Shown here: positions 2,238 to 41,062 of the stretch, in pieces
Position numbering within the stretch: the stretch's first letter is position 1
How the letters are laid out: each line of letters opens with the position of its first letter
Source: Moniliella sp. 'wahieum'
Lineage: Eukaryota
Direction: 5' to 3'
Assembly (NCBI GenBank): GCA_003971905.1
Contig: RSEE01000006.1
Location: 248,001 to 312,000 of the forward strand
Length of the DNA stretch: 64,000 nucleotides
Notes under the pieces: generated by a model
What the model was told of the DNA's origin: nothing
The model's input: only the letters and a program-made list of their open reading frames with translations
Database searches by the model: none
Program-made: the position numbers and the translations under genes

Positions 2238-2901
2238 AGTAGCAGCAGTGGTGGGGGTGGGGTGGGGATGGGAAGGGGGTAGAGAGAGGGCAGGCAGAAG
2301 CACGTGGGAAGGAGGTATAAGTACGCGCTGGGCTGGCAGCTGCGCGCAGCATGGCGCGGCGGGTGCGGTGCAACGCCGACGCACAGACCACGCTCGCCGT
2401 GCTGGGGGCGGCTGCGGGGCTGCTGAGGGTGCTGGGGGCGCTTGGATGTGTGATGGGGGGCGCATGATCTGTGCAATGGGAAGCTTTTGTGCCTGTTGCC
2501 TGTGCTGTGTGCCGCAGGACGCACTCCATCTCCCCCTCCTCCGTGCCGACCAGCCCGGCGCAACGCACCCACAGTATTGGACAAGTATGTGTCGCCTGCC
2601 AGCATCCCTGGGATTCCAATTCTGCATCAGTACTCAGTCGGCCGTGGGGCCCCGCGCTGGCATGGCCAGTGCCTGCTCCGCTTTTGGCCGCTGCTCCAGA
2701 ACACTTTAGAAAGCGGTGCCTGCGCACGCTGGAACTCCCACCCCCACACACAAGGCAGCCTATGCGACTCGACCCCAATCCACGTTCCACCCAGCCCCCG
2801 TCCAAACGCTACGTGCTGTGCTTCCGCTTCCGTCGCTTGCATCCATTTCGACGCCGTTCATCTACAGTGTACGCCCCTCCCCCCCGCCCCTCCTTCCGCT
2901 C

Positions 2902-6211: not shown

Positions 6212-6257
6212 CACGGCCGGAAAGTGAGGAGGGGCAGGGGGAGCGCAAGGGGGAGAA

Positions 6258-6516
6258 GTAGTGGTAGTGGTAGTGGTAGTGGTAGTGGTGCGGAGGGTGG
6301 TGGTGGTGGTGGTGATGGTGGGGAGCGTGGCGGTGGCGGGGGGATAAGAGGCCCAAGGACAGCGATCAGCAGCAGCTGTGCTCCTCAATGCACCTGCCCC
6401 TATTCCGCTCCTCCCCATCTCCGCCCTGATTAAATAACAGCGGCCAGATTTTGTTTTTGGCTTTTGCTTTGCACTCCCACTCCCACTCCCCACTCCCACT
6501 TCCACTCCCACTCCCA
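6258..6516. repeat. Microsatellites (GTAGTG)n, (GGT)n and (ACTCCC)n in the SSK1/MPP6 divergent intergenic region
   Basis: Directly visible at about 6258-6320 and 6473-6516. Confidence 0.8.
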
Positions 6517-6536
6517 CCGCGGCTGCATCGCGCCCC

Positions 6537-8288: not shown

Positions 8289-11001
8289 ATGCCCCCCCGC
8301 CCCCGTCCCCGCGCCCGCCCTGTCCGCCGCCGCCCCGCACACCTCCTCATGGCCCCTCCCGCCGAGCCACAGCCGCCCCTCCTCGCCCCCACCCCCGCCC
8401 CCGCCCCCACAGGCTCCACCCCGTCGACGCCGTCCGCCAGCTGGTGCGCCGCCTCTCGTCCCGCGCCGCCCCCGCGCCCCCGCCGTCCCGCCCGCCATCC
8501 CAGCCGCCATCCCGCCCACCATCCCACCAGCCGCCCCCCCCACCCGCACCCGCCTGGCGCTCCTTTGTCAGACCGACTCGGTCGGCGAGGACACGCTCCA
8601 TCCCAGCTTCTCCTACAGGAGCCAGAGCAGCTTCTCCTCCGCCCCCAAGTGGCTCGACAAGGACGCCTCCCTTGCCTCCCTCAGCCTGCCTCCCTTGGAC
8701 ACCCTCACCCGCTCCACCTCCATCCTCAACCGGCCCTCGCCCCTTTCCGCACTGGCACGCGACCCCTTTGCCCAGTCCCTGCCGCTTCCAGGCAGCAGTA
8801 CGCCTCTTCCCACCACCGTCACTCCACCCCCACCTCCCCGCTTCCCTCCCCACCTCCGTCCCCTCCGCCCGCAACACTGTGGGAGATGGGTCGCTTCTTA
8901 CTCTCCCATACGGCATGGGCTCTGGCACGCTCGACCTTGATCTTCGCAGCGAAAGCAGTCAAAGCTCTCTTGCCACTGCACCGATGCGCCCACCTCCACG
9001 GTCGCCTGCCCCGCTCGCATCCGCCTATATCCTATCATCCGCCCGCACGCGCACAACAGTTTGACACTTCCTCTTCCGTTCGTTCCGCCTGGTCCCCTCC
9101 AGCTCGAGCGATGACCCCCCCGTCCGACGCTCGCATCGCCCCTTCGCACCGCAGTCGGCCAACGCGGACGCGGTAGACCCCCGCTTCCGTCTTCACCGTT
9201 CCTCCTCCTTTGGTACTGCGTCGGGTGTGGAGCTGCGCCGTTCTTCCTCGTTACGAAGGCGATCTCGCTCAGGCTCGGGCTCGGGCTCGGGCTCTCACCG
9301 CGTGTCTGATCCAAGTGCGCACGAGACCCGACGCGACTCGGCCTTACGTCGGCTGGTGTCCTGGACCTCCTCCTCGAGCGCCTCGCGTCGTCGACAAGCA
9401 CCTTTGCCCGCATGTCCTCCTTCCCCCGCCCCTCCTCCCCTCCTCCCCTGTCGCACCCCGTCCTGCTAGTCCCCCCTGCCCCCGCCCCATCCGGGCACAG
9501 CGCTCCAAGATGCAGCCCGCACCTTCCGCACCTCCCTCACTCGTACTGCTTCCATAGTCAGTTCAACAGTAGGCCGCATCTTGGGTCGCGCACCCGACCG
9601 CACCCCACCCCCTCCACACGACACCCACAGCCTCCCCACCCCGCCCGCACCACCGCCCAAACGGTGGTCCTTGGCCCGGCTGCGTACGTTTTCCCACCCT
9701 CCCGCCCTCCACCACCACCACCTTCCCCTGCCCGGGCGGGACCGTCGAGGCAAGCGAGCCAAACGCGCATTTGGTACATACCTCCCACAAAGAACGCAGT
9801 ATCAAATTGGGCCTGGCCTGTGCCGGCGCAACCGTGACAGCCACCCAGCTTTCCCACCGCCTCTTCGCCACCGCCGGCAGCGGCATCGTTGCTCTCTCCT
9901 TCGCTCCTACCTGTGCCAACAGCGGACGCAACCGCCGCGCGGGCGTAGGCGTAGGGGAAACTGCTACAGGACCATCCCCCACCCCACCAGCGACCCATGG
10001 CACATCTGCCCCCCCGATCCAGCGCCACGGTTGGTCTCTGACTGACATCCAAGCTTTTCTCCTCCGCCCGTGGAGCACGAGGCCGCCGCTGAGAACACTA
10101 CCTCCCCACCTCCGCCGCCTCCACCTTCTCATTCTCATCCTCCTGAACGGCCAAGGCCCCTGCCACCTACCAGGTCCCTACCGCCGCCGCCCGTGGCCAG
10201 GCCAAAGACCCCGCTGAACCGCTTGCTCCACCGTCTGCCCAGCGAGATGGAGCATACGGGTCATGCGACGTTTGGATTTTCGAGCGGGTACGTTGACCTT
10301 GATCGCTCTGGTTCTGGCTCGGGAGTGGGAGTGGGCACAAGCACCGGGGGTGGGCTGGCACCCGCACCAGATCCCCCGGTGGAGCACGTAGCGTCGACGG
10401 CCAGACGCACTGGTCTGCGCGCACTGGGCGAGTGGGCCCACGCGCTGCGCGCCAGCTCGCACACGGGCTCGGTGCTACGCGAGGACCTGGGCGAGGGGGA
10501 TGTGGTGTGGCAAAAGTACATGCGCTGGGCGCTGAGCATCGAGATCCTACCTCGTGCATCGGGTACGTCGCCCTGCCAGCACCTGCGTCGCCTGCGTCGC
10601 CTGCCTCGTCTACTTTGCCTACTTCGCCAGTGTGGGGCGTGCGGTGCGGACCGAGTCCCGGCCCGGTGCGGGGCCTGCTCCTGCCCCTCCCGTCTTTCCC
10701 CGCGCCATCCCGGCGGTACTGCGCGTGGGTGCTGCGCGTTCGGCGCGCTCGTGAGGCCGTCGGAGTATTATGCAGGGTTAGGTGGAATTATCGAAGCGCC
10801 CCCGGTGGCCTCACGCTGTTGGGTCCACAAAAAAGCAGAGAGAAGGGTTGTTGGCAGGTGGCGGCCTCTTCCTCTCCTCTCTGTTCTCCCAACCCCCGCG
10901 CGCCTCTGGCCCGCATGGAGGCACTGCGCTCTTCGGTCTTCCACGAAGAAAGAGGGTTAGAGGGGCTTGTCGGACGGACTAGGATGGATGGATTGTATTG
11001 A
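8289..11001 (+). CDS. Large Pro/Ser-rich hypothetical protein, multiple frameshifts
   Basis: Chain of overlapping plus-strand ORFs with protein-like segments (TDSVGEDTLHPSFSYRSQSSF, KTPLNRLLHRLPSEMEHTGH, RMEALRSSVFHEERGLEGLVGRTRMDGLY*). AT-rich element near 8172 and a CT-rich leader. Confidence 0.5.
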
Positions 11002-12354
11002 TTCGACGGTGGGTACTGAGTGGCGAACATGACTCATGATGATGTACACGAACGCGAACGCCGCCATGCATGCGATACCTGCCACGGTTATGCGGGTAGA
11101 AGGAAGAAATGGATCAACGATCATGTCGAATGGCAGATGGAGATGGTGGCGTCCGACAGGCTGACATGTAGATGTCAGATCACTAGCACTAGTAGTCACT
11201 CATCTGAGATCTCTGAGATCTGCGAGGAGGGAGGACAAGACAGGCCCTAGTTGATGACGTTTTGATGATGCATTGCTGACATTGCATCTTCCCAGTGTGG
11301 GGACGAACGAAAGGCTACAGGCGATCGAACGCAGCCACTGGAGGCTAAACTGAGCATCATCTGCAGCATCAATGGGCCAGGCGTGGGAGTGAGTGCAAGG
11401 CAGGGGCGACGGGGGCAGCGGGGGCACTCGGTATGGCCCGGTCCGCGTTGGAGGGGGGGAGGCGACCACGACGCAGGGGGCCTCGCTTGGCCTCCCACGC
11501 TCCTCGCTTCGTCCCGGAGCTGGCCGGACCCGCCCGGCTCGGCCCGGCAGGGCCGAGCAGCGGGCGGTGCGCGACGAGTGATGCATGCATGATTGACGGC
11601 AGCGCGCCTGAAAAGGTGTGGGGCCCCGGGCCAAGGCGGGCGTGGCGGAGCGCGTGGGCGGCCGGGATGGTCCGGGTGGGGGGTGGGCGGGTTTAGCGGG
11701 ACGGCGCTGGGTCGACGTCTATATGGGTGCGAGGGGCGTGGAGAGGGTTACGATGGACGGGGGGGGGGAATTGGGTTCATCTGGGACGCAGGATCGATGG
11801 ATTGGGGCGTGGAGGGGATGGATTGGGGGAGGGGTCGGGCGCCTGGCCCGCAGAAAGACCTCGATGCCCCCAGACGGCTGGGCGGATGCGTGGCCGGCGG
11901 GCTAAGTTTCTCCATGCGCGGCGTCCAAACCATCCACGCCCTTCGCCTCCCGTCCACCCGCTCCACGCCCCAGTGGAGGCCAGCGCACGCGAGCGCGCTG
12001 CTGGGCCGCACGGCGCCAGTGTGCCCCCCGCCGCAGTTCTTCTGAGCCCAGGGCGCATCCCGAAGCGCCGCTGTTTTCCCCCGCCGCGCACAGCAGCAGT
12101 GTCGCGCGCGCGGCCACTGGCGCCGTACGCCCGCGTCGCCCGCAGCGCAGCGCGGCGCCGGCGCCCCACGCTGCCCCTGTGCGGTGCAGGACCCTCCCCA
12201 GCGTTAATCCCACTGCGCCGCAGCCCACGCTCCTGAGCCCCCCAGCGCCAGTGGGCGGCCGCACCACACTCGTCCCGTGCGCATCGTGGTGCGCACTCAT
12301 ATCCTCGGGAAGGTCCGTGCGGCAGTAGCCGGACGCGGGAAGAGCGGCGTGGAA

Positions 12355-12360
12355 TATAAG
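12355..12360 (+). promoter_or_regulatory. TATA box of GAPDH
   Basis: TATAAG 120 bp upstream of the ATG, followed by a CT-rich leader and CACCATGG start context. Confidence 0.6.
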
Positions 12361-12474
12361 GCCCCGTCCTGCGTCCTTGCCAGCCGGCGTCTCCTCTCCT
12401 CTCCACCCTTCCCTCCCACCCCACTCTTCCCACCACACCGCCTCCTCGGTATTCTCCCCACCACCCCATCCACC

Positions 12475-13595
<1,121 letters not shown>

Positions 13596-15182
13596 GCTCT
13601 ACACTCTAAGCTCTAAGCTGCTGCCATTGCGCTGCCCATACGGCCCTGGAATGGCCTCGACACAAGGCTCAGGTCCAGCATGATGTCCCTGCCCTACAGG
13701 ACACATTGAATACCGTATCCATCATCAAGACCAAGTGGCGATCGTTGTATAGCCAGGGAGACGTGCAGATAGGTTGGTAGGTTGCCTAGCGTTGGCGCGC
13801 ACGGCCACGGCAAGGTCATCGATCATCGATCGACGATCGTTCAGCGAGGGAATGTGGATCTAAGCTCTAGGGTATGTACGAATCATGTTTACGTACGGAA
13901 AGCGCTAACGCTCCAAACAGTGGGGCTTAGCGGCTGAGCGCTTGGGCATCGCTGCTACGGACCCCTGGTTTGAGTCCATAGTTAGGCCTACGCAATGGTA
14001 ATGCCTGATGCTCCGGCCTGATGCACTGATGGGTGGTGTGCGCTCCGGCGGGGAGAAGCCAGCGCACTGTTCCATGCCGATCGCGCCCATTGCATGCGAG
14101 GGCACGGAGACAGGTCCCTGCGCAGTGTCCCATGTCACATGGGCGCGTCCAAACTGGCGCCGAGGATCCGCACCCGTTGGGCCTGCGCTGCTTGACCGCC
14201 GCGGGAAGCCACCACTGCATCGACAGCACCGTTACCACTACCAATCCTGGTCCATCTGCACCGCGTTGTGCGAGGCGGCCCCGGTCCGCTTCTGTTCCGC
14301 CCCTTTTCCTGTTGCTCTGCGGCTCCGCACTGGCTTCCCCTGGTTGTATCACCACCTCTCCCCCGCCTTGCTCGTTTTCCATAAGCGTCCTGCCATTCCA
14401 CAGGACCACTGAATATGTACACCGCTGCGAACGGTCAAGCAGTTGAATGGCGCCACCAAACACATGACTTGAAGCTTGACGAGCTTGACGTTTGAGTGAT
14501 CGAGGATTGATGATGTTACACTACAACGTCCTAGTATATAGCCAACGTAACACTAGTAACACCCGCTCTTGGGCTTATCACCAGCCGCATCGCTTTCTCT
14601 CGTGCGGCATGAACACCGAGCCGCAAGGCTTGAACGCCGAACGCCCCGCTCGACAAAGAGGTCTGTGCTGGGAGTCTGATTCCTACGCAGCCTTCAGTTT
14701 AGTGTTTCTTGTACAACACATCCAGCGTCCCCGTCTGGCATATCGTAGTGCACGCGGGCACCACGGCGGCGGTCAGCAGCTCATTAGCCGTGGGGTTATA
14801 GGACGAATCGCTAAGCCGCCACAGCACCACTGCAACAGCCACTAACATCTCGACCGTCGAGTTGTGGAGCACAGTGGATTGACCTCACAGAGGCTCGCAG
14901 ACAGAAGGCGCTGTGGAGGAGAGGAAACAACATGAAAAGAATGCACAACTGAATAGGGATAATAGGATAAAAGGGAGAATAAAAAACGGAGAGAGAGCCC
15001 AGTGAAGGAAAGCGAGGATGGGGCGACCCCCAAACGACAGGTAGACTGTGACATCACAGCCCTCAGACCAGCTGAAAAACATCAACGTAACCAGAGAGAG
15101 GACGAAAAGACCCAGAAAACAAAAGAAAGCAAAACAAACAAAAATGAGGCAGGTACTGGAGTCGACTGGACGTGTCCGGTTC

Positions 15183-15849
15183 CTAGGCGATTTGGAAGAG
15201 CTGGTACGTTTCGTTCGAACCCAACCGGGCACCCAAGCTCTGGTGTGTGTTGTTCATTGGCTTGAACATGTACCGCGACGTGGGGTTGGATTCCACCGGC
15301 CCACAGCAAAGTAGAGTTGGTAGGTTGAGTTGCTCGACGACGCAACCAGTTGCCATACTTGGTTGGAAATCGTAGAGATGTCATCGGTCAAACAGGGGCG
15401 TTGCAAGAAATGGGACAGGGCACGCGTCTCGTTTTGCGCGTGGATCTCGACACAGGTTATTGGCATCCGAAGCGAGGGTAAGTTGACCGTACACCGTCTG
15501 GGTCCCCGACGCGTCGGTGGTACCGGCAGCGTTGGAACCAAGGTACGAAGACGTCAGACCGAAAAAGGTCATGTCCTGAGCAGGCGCGGCGGTACCGTTG
15601 GGTGCCATCTCCAACACCGGCTCACCGGTCTGGTCACGATCGTTGTTAAAGGAGACAGTCTTGTTGAACCCGATGGTGTTGCCGATGAGGTAGAGCGGCA
15701 TGGCTGGCCAGGCATCGCCCCGGGTCACGCTACCCAACGCGTGGAAGAAGAGAGGAGTGGGCACGACGGTGCCCTGGGCTGTGGCCAGCCAGCACGCCAG
15801 CCGCGCTGCTGAGCGCAGCCACCATCGACACGAGGGGCAGAGCAAGCAT
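15183..15849 (-). CDS. Small secreted protein with a ricin-B/beta-trefoil-like repeat, frameshifted
   Basis: Signal-like MLALPLVSMVAALSSAAGVLA, then YGQLTLASDANNLCVEIH...PCLTDDISTISNQVWQLV (C...C...QxW). Several N-glycosylation sequons. Putative end ...NETYQLFQIA* at 15183. Confidence 0.55.
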
Positions 15850-18800
15850 GACGAAAAGAACGTGGAGGTGGGGGTGGAGGAGACAAGGGCTAACGAGGGG
15901 CAGGCACGGGAGTGAGCAGTGAGTGAGGTGGGAGGGGTAGGGGATGGGTCAGAGAAGGAAAAGGAAGAGACGCTGTGGAGGGGAATCGGGAAGCGGGGGG
16001 ACCGGGGTACCCTGTAAGGAAGCAGGATTGTGGCTATACTGCTCAATCACTAGGCACTCACCTTGGTTCGCAAGCCACGCCACAGCTTGCTCTTGCCACG
16101 GGCTGCTCGCTGGGCGCAGCTCTCTTGTCCTGGTCCGACACTCGCTCCTTGCCTGCCGCGCCGGGCCGCGCTCCTCTGTGCCCCGCACCAGCCTCGGCTG
16201 GGAGCAGCGCCAGTGTCGATCCGTTTGGGATGATCCGGAGGCGAGCACCCACGGCGCCAGTGACCGATTATGGAACACAGGCGCCGTTGCCCTCGCGGTC
16301 CCCCGCCATGGGGCTGCGGCAGGCTGCTGCCTGTTGCTGCACAGCCGCTCAGCTGACCACGTGCTACAGCGACGATCCGTCAAGCGCTCGCCTCTCCGAT
16401 CTCCAGGCCCCTCGCTGCGTTCCGACTGAGCAGCAGCTGAGCTCCTAAGCGCCTACGCCCTGGGACCTTCGGCCTCTGGCCCGCCGGCCTCAGGCGCAGG
16501 ATTCAACGTGTCCAACATTCAACTTGAAGTTCCTGCTTCAAGCTGCACTTGAAGAGCTTGAGGCACAGGTTGAGCGAAGCCCTGCGATGCTGCTCAGTGC
16601 TGGCGGTGAGCCCCTCTGGGGCTCTTGAATCCTCTGGCATGTGAGGCCATGTGAGGGCCTCATCCTGAGGATACCCCGGCGACCTCAGCGGTCACAGGTG
16701 ACCGGTGAGCATTGGCCACAGCCAACTGAAGAGACGAGTGGGGGATCGACCTGATTGAGTACATACTTCTCCAACATGTGCATGATCTGGAATGGAACAA
16801 TCATGTTACGTATCAATATCAAAAGGCAGGTGATGAGATCATGAGACCTGGAGTCCTGATGATCCTCGAGGGTGATGCAATCGCACTGGTGGTGGTGGTG
16901 TGGCAACCTGCAATGCCTACAGAGGAACATCAAGCTTCAAGCAGCGAGTTGCCATCAGGCCTCAGGGGCTAAGCTGCGGGACAAGGAAGACAACAGGAGA
17001 GGGGACAGCGGAACTCCTAGGCCTGAGGAGGAACTGAAGGGACATTGGCCAAAGCACGAGCCACCTAGCTCAAGCTCAACAGTAGGGACAGAGAAGACGC
17101 TTCGCTCATCAGACCCTCGTCAGGCTCCCTGCCTCAGACCTGAGCTCAGGCCGATCTCCTCATCGATCTGATCCAGCATATTTGGTCATCTCTCGGGCTC
17201 ACCGCTGCCGGCCTCGCTACTGCCACAGGATGTGAGCACTGAACCTCGTATTGGTCGAAGGAGCTTCCGCGACAGAATCGTCCAGAAGACTCCATGACTC
17301 AGGACCCGCGCGGTCCTAGGACGGACGTCAACAACCACAAACACTGCAGAAGCCAATGGCGTCGTCACATGTCACAGCGGATCAGGGCCTATATTCCCCC
17401 CGCCAGTCGTCTTCAATCGGATGCGGTGTTAGTGAAGCGAACCATTGGCACATTGGTAGTGTACAATAGCAAAACATGTATATAGTTGCGGATTACACTG
17501 GCAAAGTGTGGTGTGCTTGGCCAAAATTTGCATCCGTAGTCGTATATGCTTTTTGTGTCACTACCCAGCGCCCCTCATTCATCATCGCGTCTTTTTTGCG
17601 AGAACGATTCCATCGGCGTGAAGAGCCCTCGGGTTCAACGTCTAGCAAAGAGGTAGTAATGATAAGATGGTCTTTGACCTTGATGACTGGTGCGGGTATA
17701 TGACGGGGGGCACATGATATAAGTACTAGGCCGCGGCAGCCGCAACCTCCTCAACAAACCCAACGGGTATAGAGTTATGAACTTGTCCCAATCACCTTAA
17801 TCATCGCCCTTCCTTTTATCCCACATGGGTCAATATGCCCCCACGGATCCACGGCTAGCATTCGCACCCCTCTCACACATGGCTTGCTTTCACGTTAGAT
17901 ATGGAGAGAAGTATGTGGTGGCCACGTCTTATCTGATGAGAGTAAACGGCGAGAGCCGACATGTCAGTGTGAATTCCATCGAATAATGAAAAGGTCTCTT
18001 GCCTCTGTCCCGCAACATCATGTCCAATATATGTCCTCACATTCGGCGGTATCAAAGCAAAATGTTGCTAGTTTCTCCGTCACATGCAGATGTCCAGGAC
18101 CCGAATCCTTCTTCACGATTCCGGCCTTGGGTTCTTCTTTAAAATCATCGCACCTGCCCGGTATGACCCGCTGTGCTTCACAAAAAAAACAGAGATGTCA
18201 CGGGCGGGCTCCGCCAGCAGGCACACCCAACAGGTTTGTGGGGTATAAATGATTCCTTACGACACGCTGGGATGACTCACGGCAGTTTCGGGCTTGGGCT
18301 AATAGTTGGTAGATCCGAGCGGAGCTAGGGACGAGGTGAGGCCTTTGGGCATGAAGCCGAGGCGGCTGCACGTGTGCAAGGCTGCTGTGTGTGGACCGGC
18401 TTGGACCGTATGACGTGTCTGAAGCTTCCGGGGCTTAGGGACGGGTAGGGCAATGGAGAGGAAAACGCTGCCAGTGCTGAGAATGGGGACGACTGTCGAC
18501 GTGGCTGGAAAGGAACCCACGTGATACGCTGGTACGGGGAATCGACGCGGTTGAAGGAAGGCTCGCGCGACTGTGCGGGACAGATGGAGAGCTGGAGGGC
18601 GAGGCTGGAAGAGGCTGAGGGAGCTAAGTGGAGAGGAGGCTACCTTTATTGAATCAATTGCCCGGAAAACGGGCAGGAGTTGTATAGGATAGGCCGGGAG
18701 GGACGAGAATGGAAGGTGGATAAAAGGATCCCCACCAACCAGGGGTATAGGCTAGATCAAAGGGGAAACGGATACAATAGAAGGGGGTGTAGAAAGTAAT

Positions 18801-19373: not shown

Positions 19374-19468
19374 GGTCGATTAGCTCAGTTGGTCAGAGCG
19401 TGGTACTAATATGTCCTCCAGGAGTGTTGGTGATGCCAAGGTCATGAGTTCAAGCCTCATATTGACCA
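19374..19468 (+). tRNA. tRNA-Ile (anticodon AAT) with a 21-nt intron at 19412-19432
   Basis: Acceptor stem GGTCGAT/ATTGACC, D arm GCTC-AGTTGGTCA-GAGC, anticodon stem TGGTA/TGCCA with loop CT-AAT-A^A, T arm ATGAG-TTCAAGC-CTCAT, discriminator A. Confidence 0.95.
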
Positions 19469-19469
19469 C

Positions 19470-19483: not shown

Positions 19484-19670
19484 GTTGAACGTTGATCGAT
19501 GATCGAAGAAGCTTCAAATTTCAAAATGCTTTCGAAGAAAGATCGAAATAGGATCTCGTGACGCGTGAAGCTTGAAGCTTGTGAAGCTTAAAGCTTGCAG
19601 CTTGATTAATGGTTTTGATGATTGGCCAACAGCTGTCACATGTCAAGCTTCAAGCTTCAAGCTTGTCAAG
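19484..19670. repeat. Cluster of chained TSA-palindrome-TSA units (7-bp period)
   Basis: TGA-ACGT-TGA-TCGA-TGA; TCA-AATT-TCA; TGA-CGCG-TGA-AGCT-TGA-AGCT; TCA-CATG-TCA-AGCT-TCA-AGCT-TCA-AGCT. Confidence 0.9.
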
Positions 19671-20568
19671 TGCCCTAGTGATATGTATGACAGTGATCTG
19701 GTGGCTACTAGCTACTGCGATGCGAAAAGTTTAACCGAGCGGACAGAGAAGGGTTTTATTCGTTTCTGGATGTTGGATGGGAAAACAGCCGCCAGGCACC
19801 GCAGCTGAACTGCAGGTGGGGCCGGTGGGGCTGTGGCGTCAGCACAGTTGGGCCGTTGACGCGGTTGACGTGTTGCTGCCATTGCCATTGATGCGGATTC
19901 GCTGATTCATGAATCGATTGCGATGAATACAGGAGCTTGGATAGGCTCGGAGGCGCCTGGAAAGAGGGTATATGCAGCAGATTGCAGCTGGCTGCGTCCA
20001 GCCGACTGGGTTTGCTGCTGGGTCGATGTACGATGCGAACGTGCTAGACTGGGCCTGGACGACGGAGACAGGCAGGTACCCGAATGATCGATGATCGATG
20101 GTTACTGATTCACGCTCTCATCGATCTCTCATCGATCTCATCGATCGTTGATAATCGATAACGGGTAACGTTTTGCTGTTTAGTACACTGAATCGGACAA
20201 CCGACACGCCACGCGCTGGGCAGGGCAGTGGGCCACAGTGTCCGTCCCATTGCACCTGTCTCATCTTCTTCGTCTGCTCCACCCGCCTGCATCATATCCG
20301 ACACCCAAGGGCAGCGGAGGGGCAGTGTGCGGGATGCATGATCAGAGTTGTGTGCTGGTGTGCTGGGCAGACTAGATGCATGATGTGGTGCACAAGGGCA
20401 CAGAGCCGCGCTGCGAAATCCGTGCCTCCTCCCCTCCGCCGCACTAGCCAGCACTCGCCCCCAGGATCCATTCCTCTGTGGCGTGCCGTTCGTGATGGTC
20501 ACTGGTCGCTCGTCACGCGGCCTTAGTCACTAGTCACTAGCCATTCTCGACGTCTGCCGCTGGCGCCA

Positions 20569-20623
20569 TCATGCATCATGCATCATGCATCATGCATCAT
20601 GCATCATGCATCATGCATCATGC
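20569..20623. repeat. (TCATGCA)7 heptamer tandem repeat
   Basis: Seven perfect copies plus a partial copy, about 200 bp upstream of the G-alpha ATG. Confidence 0.95.
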
Positions 20624-21889: not shown

Positions 21890-24800
21890 CTCCGTTCCCT
21901 CCTCCCCTATTTCTTCACAACAAGCGCGTCGATCTCTGCTGCCTTGATTCCACAACAAGGTTATCGCGCGTACCTTTACTCTCCTGCCCTTTTTTGCCGC
22001 TGGCACACACATCATGTTTTACATACCCAACCCCTTCCCTCCACACGGTCCCTCTTCAAGATTCACTCTTACTTCATCCGTTTGCTTTGTGTGTCCTGGT
22101 TCCATGCCCCCTTGCTACACCCCTTTCGGCCTGATTGTCACCCCTTCACCGCCCCTCCTCCCCCCACCCCTGACTCTCATCTGCCTGCCCCTAACACCAT
22201 TCGTGTACATTATTGTCACTTGGACCTGGCTGTTGTGGGCCATGAATGCGATCTGTGGCCATCGCAAGTTATGGTAGGAAACCCAAGTAATGATGCAGGT
22301 GGCTTTTCATATGACATCTGATCCCTTCCCTTCCTCCTCGCCGTCACCAACCATCTCGTCAGCGGTCTCATTGGAGGAATTGATGCTGGAGAAAGTGAGA
22401 GATTCGAGTCATTGTCTCACTCACGTGCCCATATGGACTCCATGGCATGCTTCGTATCAGTTGGGAGGTCCTGTGTCCACCTCTCAAATGCGCCCCCCTT
22501 CCTTCCGTAGGTACATGCGCCTTTAGTCCGTTCCTAGATGGATCCAGTCCATTCTTCTCCCCTTTCCTGCATCACACGTCTCCTGACGGCCGTATTTTAA
22601 ACGGGAATAAGACCGACAGCGGCAGAGCCATCGAGGAGAGCCACACGCGGATGTGGACTGATACTAGCACCAGCTCTTCAACCCCTCACCACGACTCGCA
22701 CCCGTGGATCCGACGAAAGCAAAGGCACATTGGCATCCAGCGGGGGCGGGGGAACAATCCTTATGTTGGCCCCGATGCGTTTGGGGCGCGTCTCACGTCT
22801 TTCCCCACCAGGTGATCCTGCAACGGATATATGCATCGTGATAACAGCGTCTTTCACGGTCAAAGGGATGGGTGCAGTTAGTTTTGCTGTGTGCATTCTT
22901 CGTGACCAACAGGACCCTGAATCACTCCATGCGACTAGTGCCGTCACGTCCACAGATCAAGTGTGTGCGATTGTCCATGTTCGGGGTCGGGCGTTCAACT
23001 GTGGCCGTGCACGGAGGGAGCCATATGCGGCCAATCTCGACTCAGGAAGGTGAGTAGGTACCAGAGTATCACGTACACGTTTTCGAGAAATGAAGAAGGC
23101 CATCGTCTCCGTGTCCAGCGCCTGACTAGCTGTGAGGGGCACAACCAAGCCCTACAGGATCTTCCGGCACCCCCACAGGATCATCCTTTTTGTTTCGCCA
23201 GCAAATGAGGATTGGCATAGGTATCCCGTGCGGGGAGCGCTAGGTGGAGAAAGTCAGAGTTGCAGTCGAAATAGAGCCAGCGGAACCCCGGGCAGGGGTA
23301 AAACGTTTGATAAGCGGGGCATGAGCACAGCGAATGGGTGCGAAGGAGAGCGAAATCGGCATTGCGTTCCGCTTCGTACCTTGATCGTCAGGGATTGGTG
23401 ACATGGATGGCCTTTTGGACTGTCATCGCTGTCACATGTCATGGGCGGGACCCGAACTGGAGCCCAACCCACGGTTTGGGGATGCTCTCCTTTGAAAGAA
23501 GAGGGTTCACACGGGTTTCGAGCCTGACCGCTATTGGCGGATCCAAACAGCGCTGGAGACGAGGTGAGGCATCTCATTTGGGGATACGGCTCGCGTGGCG
23601 CAGAACCTTGAAGGAGTTTGGCCGGAAGGTTGACGCAAGAAAAGACAAGGTCAGACAGTTCCAGTCACAGAACAATCAACTCCTGTAGGATCTAATTGCA
23701 AGACCCGCGCAGAGAAGACTGAAAGCTGGAGGGGATCGACGGCAATGGATCATGTCTGGTCAAAAGGACTTGGAAAGGCCAAGGAGTGTGGTCACTGAGG
23801 CAGGTCGGGAGGTCTGCTGGTGAACTAGGGAGCATAACGCGGGTGTTGACTGGTGGCGGGGTCTCAAGGATGGATTCGCAAGGGGATATGTTGTTACATA
23901 ATGACCCGCTATTACTAAGAGAGGAAAGAACACAAAACAAAAGCTATACAGACAGAAGGAACTTCAAGAAATCAACATACAACGTAGAAAGTGGAAGGAG
24001 AATAACGGCAAATGACTCTCAAAAGGAGCGCAGATCAAGCCGGGAAAGGTTCACACAATCCTGAGTTGATGGTAACAGGAACAGTCAACAAGGAAAAAGG
24101 CCCAACAAAGTAATGGACAAGTTCTCCACACCCTCTGCAAGAGCGTACCAAAAGGCATGAGCATGTGAAAGAGGGGGTTGTGAAAGAGAAAAAGGTACAA
24201 GAAGACGCTAAAATGCGCAGTTACTAGCTATACAGATGAACACGAAGAGGGAACATGTGTGGGTGGATCGAGGGATTGTGCGAGGCGTCCCCGTTCCCCC
24301 CCTGTTCCGCCCTGATCTTGTTGCGCCTCTGGGTTGTCCTTCGCATGTTTGCATCTCCACCACATCCTACCCTGCCTTGTTTGCCTCCGACAGAGATGCA
24401 CATTACGATGGATGGTGGCTGAGCGCGCTGAGCTGAGCTCCGAAGCTCTGAGGAACGATGATTCATTCTTCTGCCATCCCGAGGTCTCTGAGGTGCCTCG
24501 GCTTGAGAAGCCGAAGTCGCCGAGGCCGACGGTCCCCCTCAGCCCTCTCGGTCTCTTACCATGCACATCCGGGGAGAGACGCTCTGAGACACTGTCTATA
24601 TCAGATCAGTTACTGACTACTACCTTAAGCATTGGAATGGATGACATGCACAACATGAGATGGGCATTGTGTGACCGGTGACAGTGACATGTGCCAGGCA
24701 GACGATGATCGATGATCCCATCTTACTTTGGTGGCCGCTGCGATGATCTTACTTCAACGTTCAACACCTCAGGCCTCAGTCTACTTCAGTAGCTTCCGTA

Positions 24801-27291
24801 CTTGATGGCATCTCTCCATTGCGCGCTACTCCGTACTCAGCACCCCACAGTCTGAACGAAGCGAGTGAAGCTAGTGAAGCGAAGAAGCGTCGTCCCACGA
24901 ACCCATCGATCATCGATTCTCGTTCTCCGTTCGGCTCGCCGGACTTTGGTGCGCTGGCGGCGATGTATGTGCCTGGCTTCCGCAGCAACCTAGTGACTAG
25001 ATGCAGGCCAGCAGCGCAGGGCGTGGCAGCGCGCGCTCTCGGCTCAACTTGGCTCAACTGAGCAGCGGATTGGGGTGTACGACACTGCCCCCGTGCGGTT
25101 CGGGACAACCGCCGCCAAAGTGCGGGGTAAGGTGGGGGAAGAGCATTATGCATTTTGGCCGAGAGCACGTGCCCGCACCGGGCAGTGCAGGACAGCGCAG
25201 CAGTGCTGCGGCCCAGGCGCGCGGGGACCCGCTGCGCCCGTTCCCACCCACGCACGCGCGTGTGCTACGAGTGCGTTGCCATTGTTCATTCAATCTCGGA
25301 TGGTGTCTTGCAGTGCTGGTGTACAATGGTATCCAGAGGCTAGAGCGAGAGCAGCAGACCAACCCGCCTCTCGGCTGGCACCGCATCTCTTTTTTTTTTT
25401 TTTTTTTTTTTTTTCTCGGCGCGCCGCATCTGGGTTTTGCACATGCGGTGTATCGCCTTGCCCGTTTGCCACATGTTTTCAGATCCACCTCCAACCACAT
25501 GGGCAGTGGGAAACGGGCGGACGTTGCAAGCCTCTGTGCCCACGTCCGGCCTTTCTCAAACAAGAGAGTGAGAGCCAAGTGGTCCCGCATTGCCGCAGCA
25601 ACTGCCAGCCCTGCCCAGGGACAGATGACCAGCAGCGGCGCCGTTGGACTCTGGTCGCAAGAGATGGCGGCTGTTGGGCGGGGGAATGGTGATCATCACA
25701 TGGCAAACGGTACAGAAGCCCCTGGAGCTACGCACCCACTCGGTACACTTGGGGCAGTAGTCGTAGCTGGCCATAATGAACCAATCACATCATCCGCACA
25801 CAATCAGAAAATGTCAGCCACACGCAGAAAGCCTCTCGCGATTTTTTCGCCCCCCCCCCCCTTCTCTGCCTTCTTCACAGAGCTTCCAGACGGAAGGCGC
25901 AGCCCATACATGCGCAACACCGCCAGAGGGGGGAGAAGAGCCAGGCAATGACAGCAGTACCGAACTTTTTGTAATCGCCCACGCTTTCGGAAGCTCACAC
26001 GTACCCCATGTCAGAGTCGTCTGGCTGAATTCGCGGTGGGATGATGGCCTTGGGGTGGACGATGTGCTGATGGCACCTGCTGCGGCCGCAAAAGGCGTAG
26101 AGTGGGACGGACGGAAGCGGGCCGATGTGGAGAGAGACCAGCGCGAGGGGTGGGCAGAGTGTGGTGCGGGTGCGGACAGTTGGTGGGGAAGAAGTGCAAT
26201 TATATGCGCAACTGGCCGTAGTGAGACCCAGGCGGCCGGGCGGGCGGAGCACATATCTAGCTGTGTTGGGTTACCGGTTACTAGGTTACTAGCATTACTA
26301 GCATTGCAGTGCCCACAAGTCAGACACGCGGACAGTCGGTGGCCTTCGAAGCTTGCTGTTGACGTTGACGCCAGAAAACAAAGGACCCGCTTGCTGTGTC
26401 CTGTGGGGGAGCTATCCGCTCAGGGCGCTCAGGTCCCGGGGTGGGCATGTTGGGTGTGGGGGGGCGTGCAGTGCAGCGCCCGCCCGCTTCCTGTTTCGCA
26501 GAGCCCCGAACATCGCTGGCGCAAAGCCCGGGGGCGTGCGCCTCGCACTGGCCGAGTGTGCGGACTGGAGGAAGAACCGGTACTACTGTAGCCCCTACTA
26601 GTAAGCCCGTATTGCACCAGCCAGCTGAGGCGCGGCCCCCAGTGCTGAGGCGGAGCACTGAGACTGACCACTGGGCTCAGGGGAGGCTCAGCCTCAGCTT
26701 CCGAGCGTGCTCGGCGCCGCTCGCACTCTCCACACAGGGGGCGGACAACCCATTGCAGCCGAAGACACCATCTCTTCCCGCACCTTCCCGTCCGGCCTTC
26801 GCCATTCCTTCACAACCCACCGGGTGGGGCACGCGCCTCCACCCATTGCACTCTCAGCGCCTCCAGTTGCACAGCACGTACCAGTGGCTAGCCGCTGTGC
26901 TAGCCCGGCAGATGACCAGATCATGCAGATCAACCACAGTCTGCTGTCATGTCCACGTTCAACGTTCAACGTCCAACGGTCGCACCATCGGCTCCTCTGC
27001 CGTCTGCATGCATCAAGGATCTCGATCACCTCACCCGTTGCCCCCCTCAGCCTCAGGTCTCTCCCCCGTCAGCTCAATCACCGGTCATCGTTACAGGCAC
27101 CACGGGCCAGCGCTGTATTTTGTCAGGTTGCCCACACTTGGAGTGGCTGCTCTTGGCAGCTGTCTTGCGTTGGTCCGTGGGAACAGGGCCCAGCCAGGCC
27201 CAACTCCATCCATTGTGGTTGGGAACGTGGTGGGCCAAGCCCAAAATTGTTTCAGGTTTACTGCCAATGGTACCCAATGCTGCCTGACTGG

Positions 27292-27562
27292 GTTTTACCA
27301 ACCTATGCTTGCTGTACACACCTGCATGGCCACGTTTCTCTTAAATCATGCGGTAGGCCTAAGGTCTAAAATCGTAGCTGTAATCCCCACCATTTAGCAT
27401 CAACACAATACCGTGGAGGTTATAACCGTTTTACCAACCTATGCTTGCTGTACACACTGCATGGCCACGTTTCTCTTAAATCATGCGGTAGGCCTAAGGT
27501 CTAAAATCGTAGCTGTAATCCCCACCATTTAGCATCAACACAATACCGTGGAGGTTATAACC
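27292..27562. repeat. Tandem duplication of a ~136-bp unit (2 copies)
   Basis: 27292-27427 and 27428-27562 are identical by eye except for one C indel. Confidence 0.95.
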
Positions 27563-27916
27563 TCTTTTGTCAACGTCGGGCGCCAGCCGTAAGCCACTCA
27601 GGGGCAGATTCAAGGACGAAGCTTCAAGCTTCAAGCTACGTCTTGCTTTAACCCTCGGTGTCATCATACTGTCCCCAGTCCCAACACAGGCAGCGGTGAA
27701 GCTTTGGCGGCAAGCATGGGCTTGCACATTCAATTTTGTGGAGGGGACACAAGGCATCTCCGCTGGGTGGGCCGGAAGCGCCCGTGCTCCAAACTGCCGA
27801 GCATGCTAACATGGACACGCAAGAACGGGCCGATGGATCCTGTCACAACGGGGTGAGACGAGGAAAGAGGCGGGCAAACATGACGGGGGCGGAAAGGCAA
27901 TGGGAAAAGGGCACCA

Positions 27917-28420
27917 TTATGAGCGGGGCTTCTCTCTTCTTCTCGCGGAAGAGGGCGTAGAGACCTAGAGGATGGCAGTCAGTACATGTAGATACAGACA
28001 CGGGCAAAATGCCAAAATCAGAAGAGAGGTACATACCCACACCCGATACCTTGATCACGCGGAAACGCACACCGGGGATGTCACCCTTGGCCTTGCCCTT
28101 GCGGCCAAAGCCCTCAATCAGAACCTCGTCGTTCTCGTCCACGAAGTTGAGGCAGCCGTCATGGGCACAAAGGCAGCAACCTTCTTGCCGTTCTTGATGA
28201 GCTGGACACGCACACACTTGCGAATAGCCGAGTTGGGCTGCTTGGCCTCCACACCCACCTTCTCCAGGACAATGCCCTTGGCTTGCGACGAGCCGGCGGT
28301 GGGGGAAGACTTGTAGAAGTTGCCGAGGGCGCGCTTCTTCCACGCCTTGTCGGCCCACTTGTTCTCACGACGGGTCGTATGCAGCTTGCGCGCTGCGTTG
28401 AGGCCACTGGGTTTGCCCAT
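27917..28420 (-). CDS. RPS23: 40S ribosomal protein S23 (uS12); intron 27965-28036
   Basis: [81 protein letters not shown]. Confidence 0.98.
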
Positions 28421-28496
28421 CTTGTTCGAGGTGGTGGGAAAGCTTTGCCCTGCCGCAGGGATTGCCACGCCCACTTGGCCCAGCCCTGGCCACGGC

Positions 28497-28639
28497 AAAA
28501 AACCCTAGCAGCGCAACACGCTGCGGCAGAGAGCCCTCAACCCTATTGTGGCACACTGGCGCCATGCTTCCAACCCATCCATTTGCCCAGCAAGTGCAGC
28601 ATGGCCCCACTTGGGTCCTCGGTTCGGGATGTTAGGGTT
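28497..28639. promoter_or_regulatory. Bidirectional ribosomal-protein-type promoter with two oppositely oriented telobox-like motifs
   Basis: AAAAAACCCTAG at 28497-28508 and TTAGGGTT at 28632-28639, between divergent RPS23 and RPL27-like starts. Confidence 0.5.
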
Positions 28640-28879
28640 GATCGATGATTGATGATCTCGATGATCCCCCAAATTCCTCCCGATCCACCCGCAATTTAGC
28701 TCGGTCGATCAGAGCGCAGGGGCAACCAACACCACAACACTCAGTGTACGTGCCAAGGAACAGGCGCGGTGCTGGCGGGGATGCTGCTGGTGCCTAGCCC
28801 CTCTGTCCCATTCCCTTCTGTGTAGCGCTGTATGGACGAGCAAGACTGATTGGCTGATTCCTGTGCCCGATCCAGGTCC

Positions 28880-29044: not shown

Positions 29045-32000
29045 GCGCCTCCTGGTATCAATCGTGGGTTTGCGACCACGTCGGTTCCCAAGCAGCTGCA
29101 CAACCCCCGTCCGCTGCGGCTCCGTCCCCATCTGCTCGCCTCAAGGCAAGGACACTGCCGCGCCCGTCTCAAGTGACAAGGACAAGGAAACGGACAAGGA
29201 CGCTCCCTCTTGCCGTGTTTATGGTTTCGATGAAGACGATACTGAGCAAGCTTCTGCAAGACTTGGTGAACCAGTACTGGGACAAAGCCGATAAGGAAAT
29301 TGCCAAGCTGTGGAAGGTGCGTTGGTCTCCCCTGGTTATGCTCTCTTCTCCCAACTGACCGGATTTGAACCTGCCGTACAGACACTGGAGTTTGACCTGC
29401 GTCAGGCCGATACGCTCTTGTCCTTTGACTTCGAGCCCGATCTGCGGGAGGAGCTGCTGGACCTTGTATCGTACTCCTATCGTGTGCCAGAAGCGGAGGA
29501 CAGGACAAGCCTGTTGAGGAGGAAAGGAAACATCTGCTAATGGGAACAATGACAAGCCCAAGCAAGACGGCACTCCGCTTTCAGCTGAAGCTGCCGAATT
29601 CGTTCCTGGTGCTGTCGTATCCACCGAGACTGTGGCTGTTGCTGCAGAGCCGGAGGCTGCAACTGTGCCTTCTCACCCCCCGGCACCCGAGTGGGAACGC
29701 TTCCTCCTCCACCGTTGAAGGATGCAACCCAGCCACTGGACAAGGCTTTGCCCCGTGCGCTTGTCACACGTGGCCTCTTGCTCAAGCTTGGTTACTCTCA
29801 AGAGCAGATCGAAATGGCGCTACGGAACGCACCCCGATTTGAGTTGGAGGACTGCCTGACCTACCTCGCCCTCCGTCTGTCCGAAGCGGAGCTGGAAGCA
29901 GCGACCAAAGCAATGGTAAGCGCCAGTCCAGGTGCTGGTACTGGGGAAGAAGATGAGACCGTGTTGGATCGCAGCATCCCACCCTCCCATCCGGCGTATA
30001 CGTTCCAGCGTACGATCACCAAGGCCAGTGAAGCGAATTTTGTGCCTTCCCCTGCCCCCGCAGTTGAGGGAGAGGGAGCACAAGAGCAGGAAGGAAAAAA
30101 GAAACGGACGATTCAGCCTCCTTCGGACGAGACGATCATCCTTCCGATGTTCCGGGTGAGGGAGCTGCTCAAGCATGCGCTTTCTCTTGCGAATGAGGCT
30201 CAAGCCCACCTCACTGATGAGGAGGGGGAGCTGGATGTAATCACTGCCGGCGCAATCAAAGCCTGGGTGGCAACCAAGATCTGGACCAATAAGGTGGAGG
30301 AGGTGTATGCCCAGATGAAGCGCGCGCTCGGCCAAGCCCACCTGCTCAATCCACAAGGAATTGGGTTCGAGACGGCCAAGGTTGTTCGGCAAGTCCATGG
30401 CAGTCTGTACGCGCGTATCGCCGAGGCGGAGAAGGTACCTCGCTTCAACGCTGCGGCAGCCGAGAGTGTCTTGACTGCCGCGCTGGGGAAGCAGCGTGCC
30501 AGTGACCGCCCTCGTGCCGGGAAGGAGAATTGGGAACAAATCATCGCACTCGCTGAGCAAGAGGCGGCGGAAAAGAAGAAACAGGCAGAGGAAGCGGCGG
30601 CGGCTAAGGCGGTTGCTGAGGCTGCTACGCAACCCCCCCGCTTCTGAGGAGGAGACGTCTTCCTCCTCCCAGGAGGAAGGGACAGCAAATCTAGCCCCGA
30701 TACCGTTGCACCCGCCTCCAAGCCGGAGGAGGATGAGGAGGGACTGGGAAGAATGTTCCAAGATCCCGGGGAAACAAGCAAGGACAGCGAGCCCCAAGCG
30801 ACAGTGACAGTACGCAAGTTGCCCCCCAAAACCAAGAATGGAGGAAACACACCCCAGAGTCTACTGCTACAGACCTTGCGCCGGCTTGATCCCACGGCGA
30901 CCGCAAAGTACGAGACGTTGAATGGACCTGGTCGCTTCTTCCGCAGTAAGTTGACGGTGCAGTGGACGGGCCCCCATGTGGCGTCGGCGCAAGCGGCCCT
31001 TCCAATCTCTCAACGGCGTGCTCCCGACATGGTTTTCATCGACACATTTACCATGACAGGCGAGTGTGCCGAGACCAAGGCACAAGCCCATGACTTGACC
31101 TCTACCCTGGCTCTCAACTGCATTGAACAAGACCGTCCAGTTCAGCGGATGCTCGGCGCAGGCTACCGTGAGTGGTGGGACCAGATTGAGAATTGTCGTT
31201 CGCGGGAGCGGAGCACGGCGGCGCGCCAGACCTTGGCCCGGGTCAAAGACTTGGTTGAACCGCGGTTGGTTGAGGCGCCTGCCCCTCCTCCATACTGCAA
31301 CCCCCCCAAAGCCAAGCCCGCGGCGGATGAGGGACAAACCACGCTTTCCCTTCAATCCAAGCGCCCAAGCGAGCGTACGACGGCACGTTTGCGCGAGGCT
31401 CTCGAGACGCGTCAAGCCTCCCCCGCGTACGAGGCGATGCGACCTGGCCGGGAGCAGTTGCCAATTTATGCGTATCGCGATCACATTCTCGACATTCTTG
31501 ATCACAACCAAGTGTTTGTCTTGTCCGGCGAAACGGGTTGCGGTAAGTCGACGCAAGTGCCTGCGTACATTCTCGAGCACTGCTTGAGCCGCTCCCAGCC
31601 ATGCAAGATTTACTGTACCGAGCCGCGTCGGATTTCGGCCATCTCTTTAGCCGAACGTGTCTCGGCCGAGTTGGGTGAGGCCAAGCATGCTGTGGGTACC
31701 GCAGAGAGTCTGGTAGGATATGCGATCCGTCTGGAGAGCAGTGTCGGGCGGGACGCCCGCTTGATCTACGCCACCAACGGTATTGTTCTCCGGATGCTTG
31801 AAGGTGACGGCTTCAAGGACATTACCCACATCATTATCGATGAGGTTCATGAGCGTTCGATCGAGTCGGATTTCCTCTTGATCATCCTCAAGAGCCTGAT
31901 GGCGGCCAAGCCCGAGCTCAAGGTTGTGCTCATGTCCGCAACGTTGGATGCGGAGCGGATTAGTGCCTACTTTGGTGGTTGTCCTACCCTCTCGGTTCCT

Positions 32001-39489: not shown

Positions 39490-40669
39490 GGCGGCGCTGG
39501 GGAGGGTGGTGGTGGTGGTGGTGTGTGGGGGGGGGGGCGCCGGTTGGGCCTTATAAAGCCGAGGGAGAGCGCAGAGAGCGCGCGGGCGATCTCTACGCAG
39601 TGGCAACCTATTCGACCCTATTCGACACGCAGGCGTGTTCCTACTCTGCCCTGCCCTGCCTTGCTCCCCCTTGGCGCTAGTCTCGCACCGCCTGGGCCCG
39701 CCCCGCTGCGGCCCCGTGCATCCTCTCCGCAGGGGGCCAGTCAACTACTATCTCCCAATCTCCGCACCCAGCCCCCGCAGCCCCCGCCCGCACGCGGGGA
39801 TCACACAGGACACTGCCCCCCCGCCGCTTGCAAGTGCGAAAAAGCCGCTCCGACGCATTCTGGCTCGGCCCGTCGGCAGCAGCTGCCGGCCCTCCCTCCT
39901 CGCGTGCGGGGAGCGCATGGCAGTAGCCCAGTCTCATGCACCGTGCCACACATTCATCATGCATCATACATCATGCATCACGCGCCCTCATCCATTCGCG
40001 CGCATCGAGGCCCTCGTCTGCGGACACTGCCCCCCGGCCCATCGTGCTCCAATCGGTGCTGTGCCAGGCCTTGCCCCGCTTTTGCCGGGCAGGGCAGTGG
40101 CATGCCGATCGAGGATCGGTAGCAGACCGGATGCGAGTGCGTGGCTACGCGAGGAGAACATCTGCATCACACATCATCCATCTCATCGGCTGCGCCGTTT
40201 TGCCTGCGTCTTTCTTTTTTGACTAAAGCGCACTAAAGCTACTCCGTACTCATCCCCATCCCACCGGCTCAGAAGGCCCACAGCTGAGGCCCTCAGCACT
40301 GTGTTTGCCCGCCCCGCCCCGCCCCGCTTCAAGCTTCAAGCTAGTCAAGCCTCACCGGCCCCACCCAACCCGACGGCGGCAGCGGCTGTTTCCTCCGCAG
40401 GTCTTTGCACCGGAGCTGGCACCCTGCGGAGAAAAAGGGTATAAATACCTCTCGATAGGTGCTTTTTGCTTCCCACGTCCTCTGGCGGCCCTTACTTGTC
40501 TTGGCGTCCTTTGCGTCCCTGATGGGGTCAAGGGGATGCCGACGACACTGGTGGAGCGATGCCGTGACAAATACGAAGCGCGTTTGACGTTTGCGCCTGC
40601 TAGTCCTTTTACCGCGGTTAGCGGCGAGAGCCTCCAAACGCAACACGTATGCATAACACCGATTGAGCC

Positions 40670-41062
40670 GCTGATGCATGATGCATGATGCATGATGCTC
40701 CAATAGCCCCCGAGTGCGACACTCCGCATCCGCTCGCCGTGCCCGCGGGGAATCACCCGGCATCGGGGGAGTGTCCGCACCGCCTTTCCTGTCCTGCCGT
40801 GCTCTGCCGTGCTACGCAGTGCTTCGCAGTGCCCGCTTGACCGATTGAGTGGCCAGTGACTAGATGACCGGTGACTAGAACTAGCTAGTAACTAGTAACT
40901 AGTAACTAGCTAGTAACTAGTAATCGAAGTAATCAATGATTAGTACTTAGTGATCGATGATCGCTAATCCAATCCAAGGGCTCTGGTGCGCGGATTTGCG
41001 TGGAGCACATGGCAGAGGCGAGGCAATAATCACTAATCATCGATCAGAGCTCACCGGTCACC
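40670..41062. repeat. Cluster of TNA-palindrome-TNA units between JEN1 and MLH3
   Basis: (TGATGCA)3TGA at 40672, TGA-CCGG-TGA at 40865, (TAACTAG)3 at 40889, TGA-TCGA-TGA at 40951, TCA-TCGA-TCA-GAGC-TCA-CCGG-TCA at 41037. Confidence 0.9.

Follow-up and report, generated by a model that had tools for sequence, protein, structure and literature searches.

The intergenic DNA of the window (the whole 64-kb stretch of DNA analysed here) contains 49 units of the form TNA-N4-TNA, each 10 bp in length, in which the four-base spacer is a palindrome that mirrors an outer two-base flank of the unit in 44 cases. The cores are TSA in 43 units, where the sequence-only reading of this DNA had counted approximately 40, and TWA in the remaining six. 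The pattern is genuine and greatly exceeds chance, and the unit is a mutational scar, not a motif made by design. At a site xy-TNA-zw exactly 7 bp have been gained, to give either xy-TNA-zw-w'z'-TNA-zw or xy-TNA-y'x'-xy-TNA-zw, the gain being a direct copy of the TNA and two flank bases plus a 2-base inverted copy of those bases. The best available interpretation, unproven and to which we would give an even chance, is that the scars belong to a known class, the footprints left by transposon excision.

The enrichment of palindromic over non-palindromic spacers that the sequence-only reading had put forward is borne out by simulation. Against the 49 units observed, 30 simulated sequences per Markov order averaged 2.0 units at order 1, 0.9 at order 3 and 3.8 at order 5, and none held more than nine. 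Within the window, the spacer is palindromic in 43 of the 76 TSA-N4-TSA occurrences that have the same middle base on both sides, compared with one of 15 in which the middle bases are unlike. By class, the palindromic shares are 28/47 for TCA..TCA, 15/29 for TGA..TGA, 4/12 for TAA..TAA and 2/5 for TTA..TTA; with unlike middle bases they are 0/12 for TCA..TGA and 1/3 for TGA..TCA, the middle base being always a direct copy and never complemented in the TCA..TGA sense. All 64 trinucleotides pooled gave 150 palindromic spacers among 1744 in the window, and the effect is limited to TNA among the cores compared. A spacer of four is the only one enriched, with 76 same-S and 15 unlike-S pairs, compared with 23–51 and 10–38, respectively, at other spacings. 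Nothing comparable was found in the window for TSA pairs with a spacer of 2 or 6, the TSATSA outcome class showed no clear enrichment (39 same-S versus 29 unlike-S), and two palindromes between TNAs were found in only three cases in the window. Eleven spacers are used, namely the ten listed in the sequence-only reading together with GTAC, whereas ATAT, TATA, TTAA, GATC and GCGC are unused as spacers among the units in the window.

For comparison, we retrieved 80 eukaryotic metagenome loci with a G-alpha exon (513,416 bp). The best G-alpha relative among them is 65% identical, so they provide no orthologous intergenic DNA and serve as a negative control only. The palindromic share in these contigs was 21 of 334, which equals chance; they held 28 TNA units in total, seven with a flank match and some on near-identical contigs.

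The dependence of the spacer on its flanks, claimed previously, is also upheld. Among the 49 units the match is to both sides in 17, to the right only in 15, to the left only in 12 and to neither in five. Isolated units obey the rule in 20 of 24 cases, compared with 12% by chance (binomial tail 3e-15). Direct repeats of five bases (TNA plus two flank bases) spaced 7 bp apart number 42 with the TNA on the left and 42 with the TNA on the right, from which we infer an original 7-bp duplication. In TNAzw-NN-TNAzw the two bases NN are the reverse complement of zw in 32/42, compared with 27/336 for non-TNA cores, and in xyTNA-NN-xyTNA they are the reverse complement of xy in 29/42, compared with 23/336; the values for non-TNA cores (about 7–8%) are near the 1/16 chance rate. 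The units thus carry direct duplication on both sides of the joint as well as P nucleotides reverse-complementary to the flank they adjoin, and both features are expected of a generic hairpin excision footprint.

The 49 units, TWA cores included, are grouped in 33 chains. When chains were rebuilt from their outer flanks, 31 of 36 were explained, comprising 12 of the right-mirror type, nine of the left-mirror type, seven that are ambiguous and three that are mixed, and in all three mixed chains the left-mirror spacers come before the right-mirror spacers. The four chains and units that had been quoted as examples from positions 19484–19670 read as described, and this segment of 187 bp holds eight units. 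In the chain at 19486..19502 the ancestral site would have been gtTGAtc, struck twice. Five of the 36 chains break the flank rule. The five units concerned (24672, 27078, 28639, 40865 and 41037) all have CpG spacers, CCGG in three and TCGA in two, and in the heptamer following unit 28639 TTGA stands for TCGA, a CpG-to-TpG change. Half-palindromic spacers are present in excess (29 with one pair versus 15 with none, where the expectation is 6:9), which looks like point-mutation decay of older units.

The window has about 60% G+C and is eukaryotic nuclear DNA with split genes. Coding maps based on GC3 periodicity and codon usage were weak, and coding DNA was therefore defined by Pfam-supported ORFs. 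The genes supported in this way are those for an epimerase, GAPDH (ending at 13597), G-alpha (from 20677), RPS23, a helicase, a sugar transporter, DSBA, EBP, Vps26, a WD40 protein, dynamitin and a cation-efflux protein. None of the 49 units lies inside the 14,513 bp of Pfam-supported coding DNA, compared with six of 44 non-palindromic TNA-N4-TNA occurrences, which gives, for the window, the intergenic-versus-coding comparison that the sequence-only reading had called for. As shown in Table 1, units are found 5' of genes as well as 3' of GAPDH and of a tRNA gene, with 34 in the region 13.6–29 kb, 14 in the region 39.9–41.1 kb and one elsewhere. The unit-rich non-coding DNA amounts to 15.3 kb, in which 48 units are found among 707 TNA sites, so that about 7% of the sites are scarred. 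The densest cluster begins 17 bp beyond the 3' end of the tRNA as given by Rfam, close to the earlier estimate of about 16 bp. With one tRNA in the window, the targeting by Pol III or open chromatin that the sequence-only reading had suggested from this proximity is conjectural. ARAGORN run with introns places this tRNA at approximately 19374–19469 and assigns it as Thr(AGT) with a 21-nt intron, the intron placement and isotype being uncertain; its bacterial mode found no tRNA in the window. The unit that lies outside both unit-rich stretches directly adjoins the epimerase ORF (1659–2627, minus strand) at its first ATG.

Table 1. Units, chains and arrays in the window, with the neighbouring tRNA gene.
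Feature	Position	Strand	Remarks
TCA-GTAC-TCA then gt	2627..2636	.	Sole unit outside the two unit-rich stretches
Six isolated units 3' of GAPDH	13816..17374	.	Starts 13816, 14470, 16699, 16930, 16955, 17365
Intron-bearing tRNA gene	19374..19468	+	Rfam RF00005, 52.6 bits; neighbour, outside the scars
Chain gt-TGA-ACGT-TGA-TCGA-TGA-tc	19486..19502	.	Left spacer mirrors left flank, right spacer mirrors right flank
Single unit TCA-AATT-TCA, then aa	19514..19523	.	Right-mirror type
Chain cg-TGA-CGCG-TGA-AGCT-TGA-ag	19559..19575	.	Left-mirror then right-mirror
Decayed (TGAAGCT)n array	Continues chain 19559–19575, to 19605	.	Period 7, 5.4 copies, 77% matches
Chain tg-TCA-CATG-TCA-AGCT-TCA-AGCT-TCA-ag	19636..19659	.	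One left-mirror and two right-mirror units
Units 5' of G-alpha gene (ATG 20677)	20085..20620	.	Next four lines
TGA-TCGA-TGA	20085	.	Upstream of G-alpha
TAA-TCGA-TAA	20152	.	Upstream of G-alpha
TCA-CTAG-TCA	20527	.	Upstream of G-alpha
Array of seven overlapping TCA-TGCA-TCA units	About 20569–20620	.	Upstream of G-alpha; about 8 heptamers, 8.1 copies over 20567–20623
Five isolated units	23432..24778	.	Starts 23432, 24672, 24706, 24754, 24769; upstream of ORF starting 25001
Five isolated units	26271..28648	.	Starts 26271 (TTA-CCGG-TTA), 26959, 27078, 27624, 28639
Last of these five, upstream of RPS23 gene (minus strand)	28639		
Group of fourteen units	39957..41060	.	Two arrays and single units
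TCATGCA array	39957–39980	.	In 39957..41060 group
TGATGCA array	About 40672–40695	.	In 39957..41060 group
Other units of 39957..41060 group	40329, 40865, 40889–40905 (TAA-CTAG), 40914, 40940 (TTA-GTAC), 40951, 41037, 41051		

Other repeats were noted in the same DNA. A (CTAAGCT)n array at 13585–13619 begins in the last codons and stop codon of GAPDH; it has a CTA core where the units have TNA, does not follow the flank rule, and could be either an ordinary heptamer repeat or a relative of the units altered by mutation. Heptamer arrays that share one unit in opposite orientation are found at 39955–39980 and 40672–40697, 691 nt apart, and at 19563–19581 and 19644–19662, 62 nt apart; these opposed pairs form inverted repeats of 19–26 nt that are 95–96% complementary and could extrude hairpins or cruciforms. 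Between two units, at 27292–27562, there is a non-coding tandem duplication of 135 bp (2.0 copies, 99% identity). The region 1–13000 has 59–74% G+C per kb, many low-complexity repeats, such as (CGCATT) x28 at 4105–4275, and many long ORFs on both strands, of which the epimerase ORF gave the only Pfam match; it contains one unit. Tandem repeats of 24–27 and 70 bp (up to 6.6 copies, 78–93% matches) lie at 58747–58994, near the cation-efflux gene region.

The simplest mechanism, on which our confidence is evenly divided, is transposon insertion followed by excision via flank hairpins. A cut-and-paste DNA transposon would insert at NN-TNA-NN and duplicate 7 bp; the direct copy points to a target cut with a stagger and subsequent fill-in. 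At excision the transposase would leave both flanks as covalently closed hairpins, as is the case for hAT, Transib/RAG and Muta1. The inverted copy is joined to its template, which suggests a hairpin end opened off-centre, and a host nuclease would open each hairpin 2 nt from the tip to give the self-complementary 4-nt 3' overhangs zww'z' and y'x'xy. The ends would then be joined with one overhang beside the other and without trimming, each overhang being ligated to the opposite recessed 5' end, so that the right-mirror product would be carried by the top strand and the left-mirror product by the bottom strand. Which mirror side is fixed would depend on the strand ligated first or on which daughter duplex results when the mismatched joint is replicated. 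One intact 7-mer would survive, and the site could therefore be struck again to produce mixed chains, while repeat strikes together with slippage would give rise to the heptamer arrays. We derived this geometry of 7 bp and 2 nt by hand from the sequence format. The gain is always +7, left-mirror chains (9) are about as numerous as right-mirror chains (12), the middle base is not complemented, a copy of the target is intact and left precedes right in the mixed chains, all as the model predicts. The earlier proposal of serial insertion and excision scars at a self-regenerating, TNA-centred target of about 7 bp survives the tests run here, and continues to stand as an interpretation of the sequence.

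Other geometries were also worked by hand. The duplication of 9 bp less one base, which had been suggested as a fit to a MULE, does not reproduce the observed sequence, whereas an exact duplication of 7 bp with a 2-nt offset fits untrimmed. Neither the hAT geometry (8 bp, 1-nt offset) nor the Transib geometry (5 bp) reproduces it, and the offset of 1 nt that characterizes Hermes-type hairpins does not give the observed sequence. P nucleotides derived from a 3-bp duplication would place TN'A beside TNA, and fold-back template switching, which had been offered as an alternative, would give a complementary middle base (TCA..TGA); the count for this arrangement is the 0/12 reported above. Remnants of element ends between 3-bp duplications are ruled out by the fact that the spacer follows the flank.

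Several observations count against the transposon model. Hairpin footprints elsewhere are heterogeneous, but one format is dominant here, and this needs either a very stereotyped host process of opening and joining or a different enzyme. The five rule-breaking chains also count against it, as does the very high density of units with no element left. Pfam scans of 140 window ORFs found no transposase domain, and no element with TIRs bounded by the same TNA within 6 kb was found in the 64-kb window. The TIR search gave 15 candidates, of which 11 lie inside heptamer arrays, one pairs two CATG units and three have 8-nt terminal matches, where approximately two such matches are expected by chance according to our own arithmetic.

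Comparison of the units with known systems indicates partial likeness to several of them. Coding-end hairpins in V(D)J recombination are usually opened with an offset of 2 nt. The V(D)J and Transib systems share with our model hairpin opening some 2 nt off the tip, which leaves a self-complementary 4-nt 3' overhang and at most two P nucleotides and is the intermediate that the grammar requires. Transib and RAG transposition, however, produces 5-bp duplications, which with a 2-nt offset would leave a core of one base and not TNA, and the window showed no gene of the RAG/Transib type. The PIF/Harbinger and IS5-type elements make 3-bp duplications of the T-N-A type and are similar in preferring targets centred on a T-x-A trinucleotide, but a 3-bp duplication cannot put a copy of zw after the left TNA. 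We know of no flank hairpins in P-type excision and of no superfamily that combines a 7-bp TNA-centred duplication with flank hairpins.

According to PMC5499845, hAT, Transib, RAG1 and Muta1 form hairpins in the flanking DNA, which are opened by host enzymes such as Artemis and leave footprints on end joining; hAT elements make 8-bp duplications, those of MULEs are 8–10 bp and Muta1 excision in yeast is more than 90% precise. PMC5873905 describes P-nucleotide palindromes in the footprints of Ac/Ds in Candida albicans, with 28 footprint types among 128 excisions (the two commonest accounting for 53), and hAT footprints centred on the complement of the base adjoining the element. The window units share with the footprints of hAT and Ac/Ds short flank-mirroring palindromic additions next to target duplications that have been kept (PMC5873905), and a hairpin opened near its tip by a host nuclease and followed by end joining is what we would propose for them as well. 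They differ from hAT footprints in their 7-bp duplication and net gain of 7 bp, in the lack of a complemented central base and in their one dominant format, and from MULE footprints in a gain of 7 rather than 8–10 bp. Galileo, of the P superfamily, duplicates 7 bp of its target around a central base that is free, as proposed here, with the quasi-palindromic consensus GTAGTAC (PMC2775673); this corresponds to GTA-N-TAC and not to NN-TNA-NN, and Galileo and its relatives are animal elements. Excision sites of mPing are repaired precisely and carry no scar (PMC4561436).

Break and repair independent of any transposon could also be considered, in which a host or domesticated nuclease, or replication-linked templated insertion, acts at NN-TNA-NN and stereotyped repair adds 7 bases. 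We consider this explanation unlikely, although it accounts for certain features well: the format is extremely uniform, with the four-base spacer alone enriched, both the element and its transposase are absent from the window, and the clustering of units in few intergenic stretches with repeat strikes at one site would fit a targeted enzyme. A nuclease alone, however, does not give a direct duplication of 5–7 bases plus an inverted copy of two, since the direct copy needs staggered strand transfer or fill-in and the inverted copy needs a hairpin or strand switch. Simple fold-back copying predicts TCA..TGA, which does not occur among the units, and the insertions templated during end joining are heterogeneous in length.

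Selection of the units as cis-regulatory or protein-binding sites, for example as direct TCA/TGA half-sites at 7-bp spacing, is improbable. The use of eleven different spacers and the presence of units downstream of GAPDH and the tRNA speak against it, and the fact that the neighbouring two bases dictate the spacer is a signature of origin and not of a binder. It does agree with the location of the units, which are intergenic and often just 5' of genes (G-alpha, with units at 20085–20620, the ORF at 25001 and RPS23), and with the excess of 49 perfect units over 29 half-decayed spacers with one pair. It is possible that some units were later co-opted as regulatory sites.

A third explanation, which we regard as very improbable, is that the units are ordinary heptanucleotide microsatellites formed by slippage of 7-bp units that happen to hold a palindrome. 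True arrays do exist, at 20569–20620 (seven TCA-TGCA-TCA), 40672–40698 (TGATGCA) and 19643–19664 (TCAAGCT), and period-7 identity is at least 7 nt in eight of the 24 isolated units. In the other 16 it is below 7 nt, with a mode of 5–6, so these did not arise by tandem copying of a palindrome that was already there; two full head-to-tail 7-bp copies are found in the arrays alone. Slippage also leaves the palindrome, the flank mirroring, the TNA cores and the mixed chains with two spacers unexplained, and it probably does no more than lengthen arrays that were already seeded. An artefact of assembly or sequencing is hardly credible, given that the units, each short and in a unique context, follow rules, keep to non-coding DNA and recur at many loci, and that no known artefact writes flank-dependent palindromes.

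Returning to excision footprints, the sequence-only reading had known of no description of the grammar. No description of the TNA-palindrome-TNA grammar, the flank rule or the model of 7 bp and 2 nt was found in the literature searched, which covers few subscription papers, and a literal text search for six of the 10-mers returned shRNA loops and primers only. There is one possible qualification. Ali et al. (2014), citing Laurie et al. (2012) and Schirawski et al. (2010), refer to 10-bp repeats in Ustilago maydis that were proposed to be transposon footprints, 26 of which lie between the effector genes of one cluster (PMC4081816). This is the only paper among the literature searched that mentions the U. 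maydis 10-bp repeats, and 11 of its 15 supplement files contain no mention of them. Compared by this citing description only, the repeats resemble the units in their 10-bp length, their number, their intergenic location and their reading as footprints (PMC4081816), and the fungal subphylum matches that of the nearest named relatives of the window (Ustilaginomycotina). For the DEAH helicase ORF at 30753–32921 the best named matches are from Sporisorium scitamineum (54%) and Ceraceosorus bombacis (52%), with further basidiomycetes ranking next, and the source is therefore a basidiomycete that probably falls within or close to Ustilaginomycotina. The organism of the window is nevertheless a distant lineage, this one helicase being 52–57% identical to smut and Ceraceosorus proteins. 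Since length, location and fungal group fit, the U. maydis repeats may well be the same phenomenon in a distant relative.

A more far-reaching possibility, which we advance tentatively, is that the scars are the work of a new DNA transposon lineage or its domesticated descendant, possibly still active, within this group of fungi. Such an element would combine a 7-bp NN-TNA-NN duplication with RAG/Transib-like hairpin excision and would hop locally at a very high rate without nearby copies, constantly rewriting promoters and 3' flanks through the addition of 7-bp blocks that contain a palindrome and seeding heptamer arrays, and the 10-bp repeats of U. maydis would be its trace.

The grammar is unusually clean and specifies the element to look for. 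If the units are excision scars, it provides a precise search image (a duplication of 7 bp centred on TNA, with symmetric flank hairpins opened at an offset of 2 nt) and also shows how this fungus opens hairpins and joins ends. It may also offer a mechanism for the 10-bp repeats of U. maydis and carry them over to a distant relative. Should the units instead be conserved, they would represent an unusual family of regulatory sites of mutational origin. In this compact fungal genome, short stretches between genes have been struck repeatedly, and with about 7% of TNA sites scarred in the unit-rich stretches this process would be a major source of variation in promoters and UTRs and of heptamer microsatellites.
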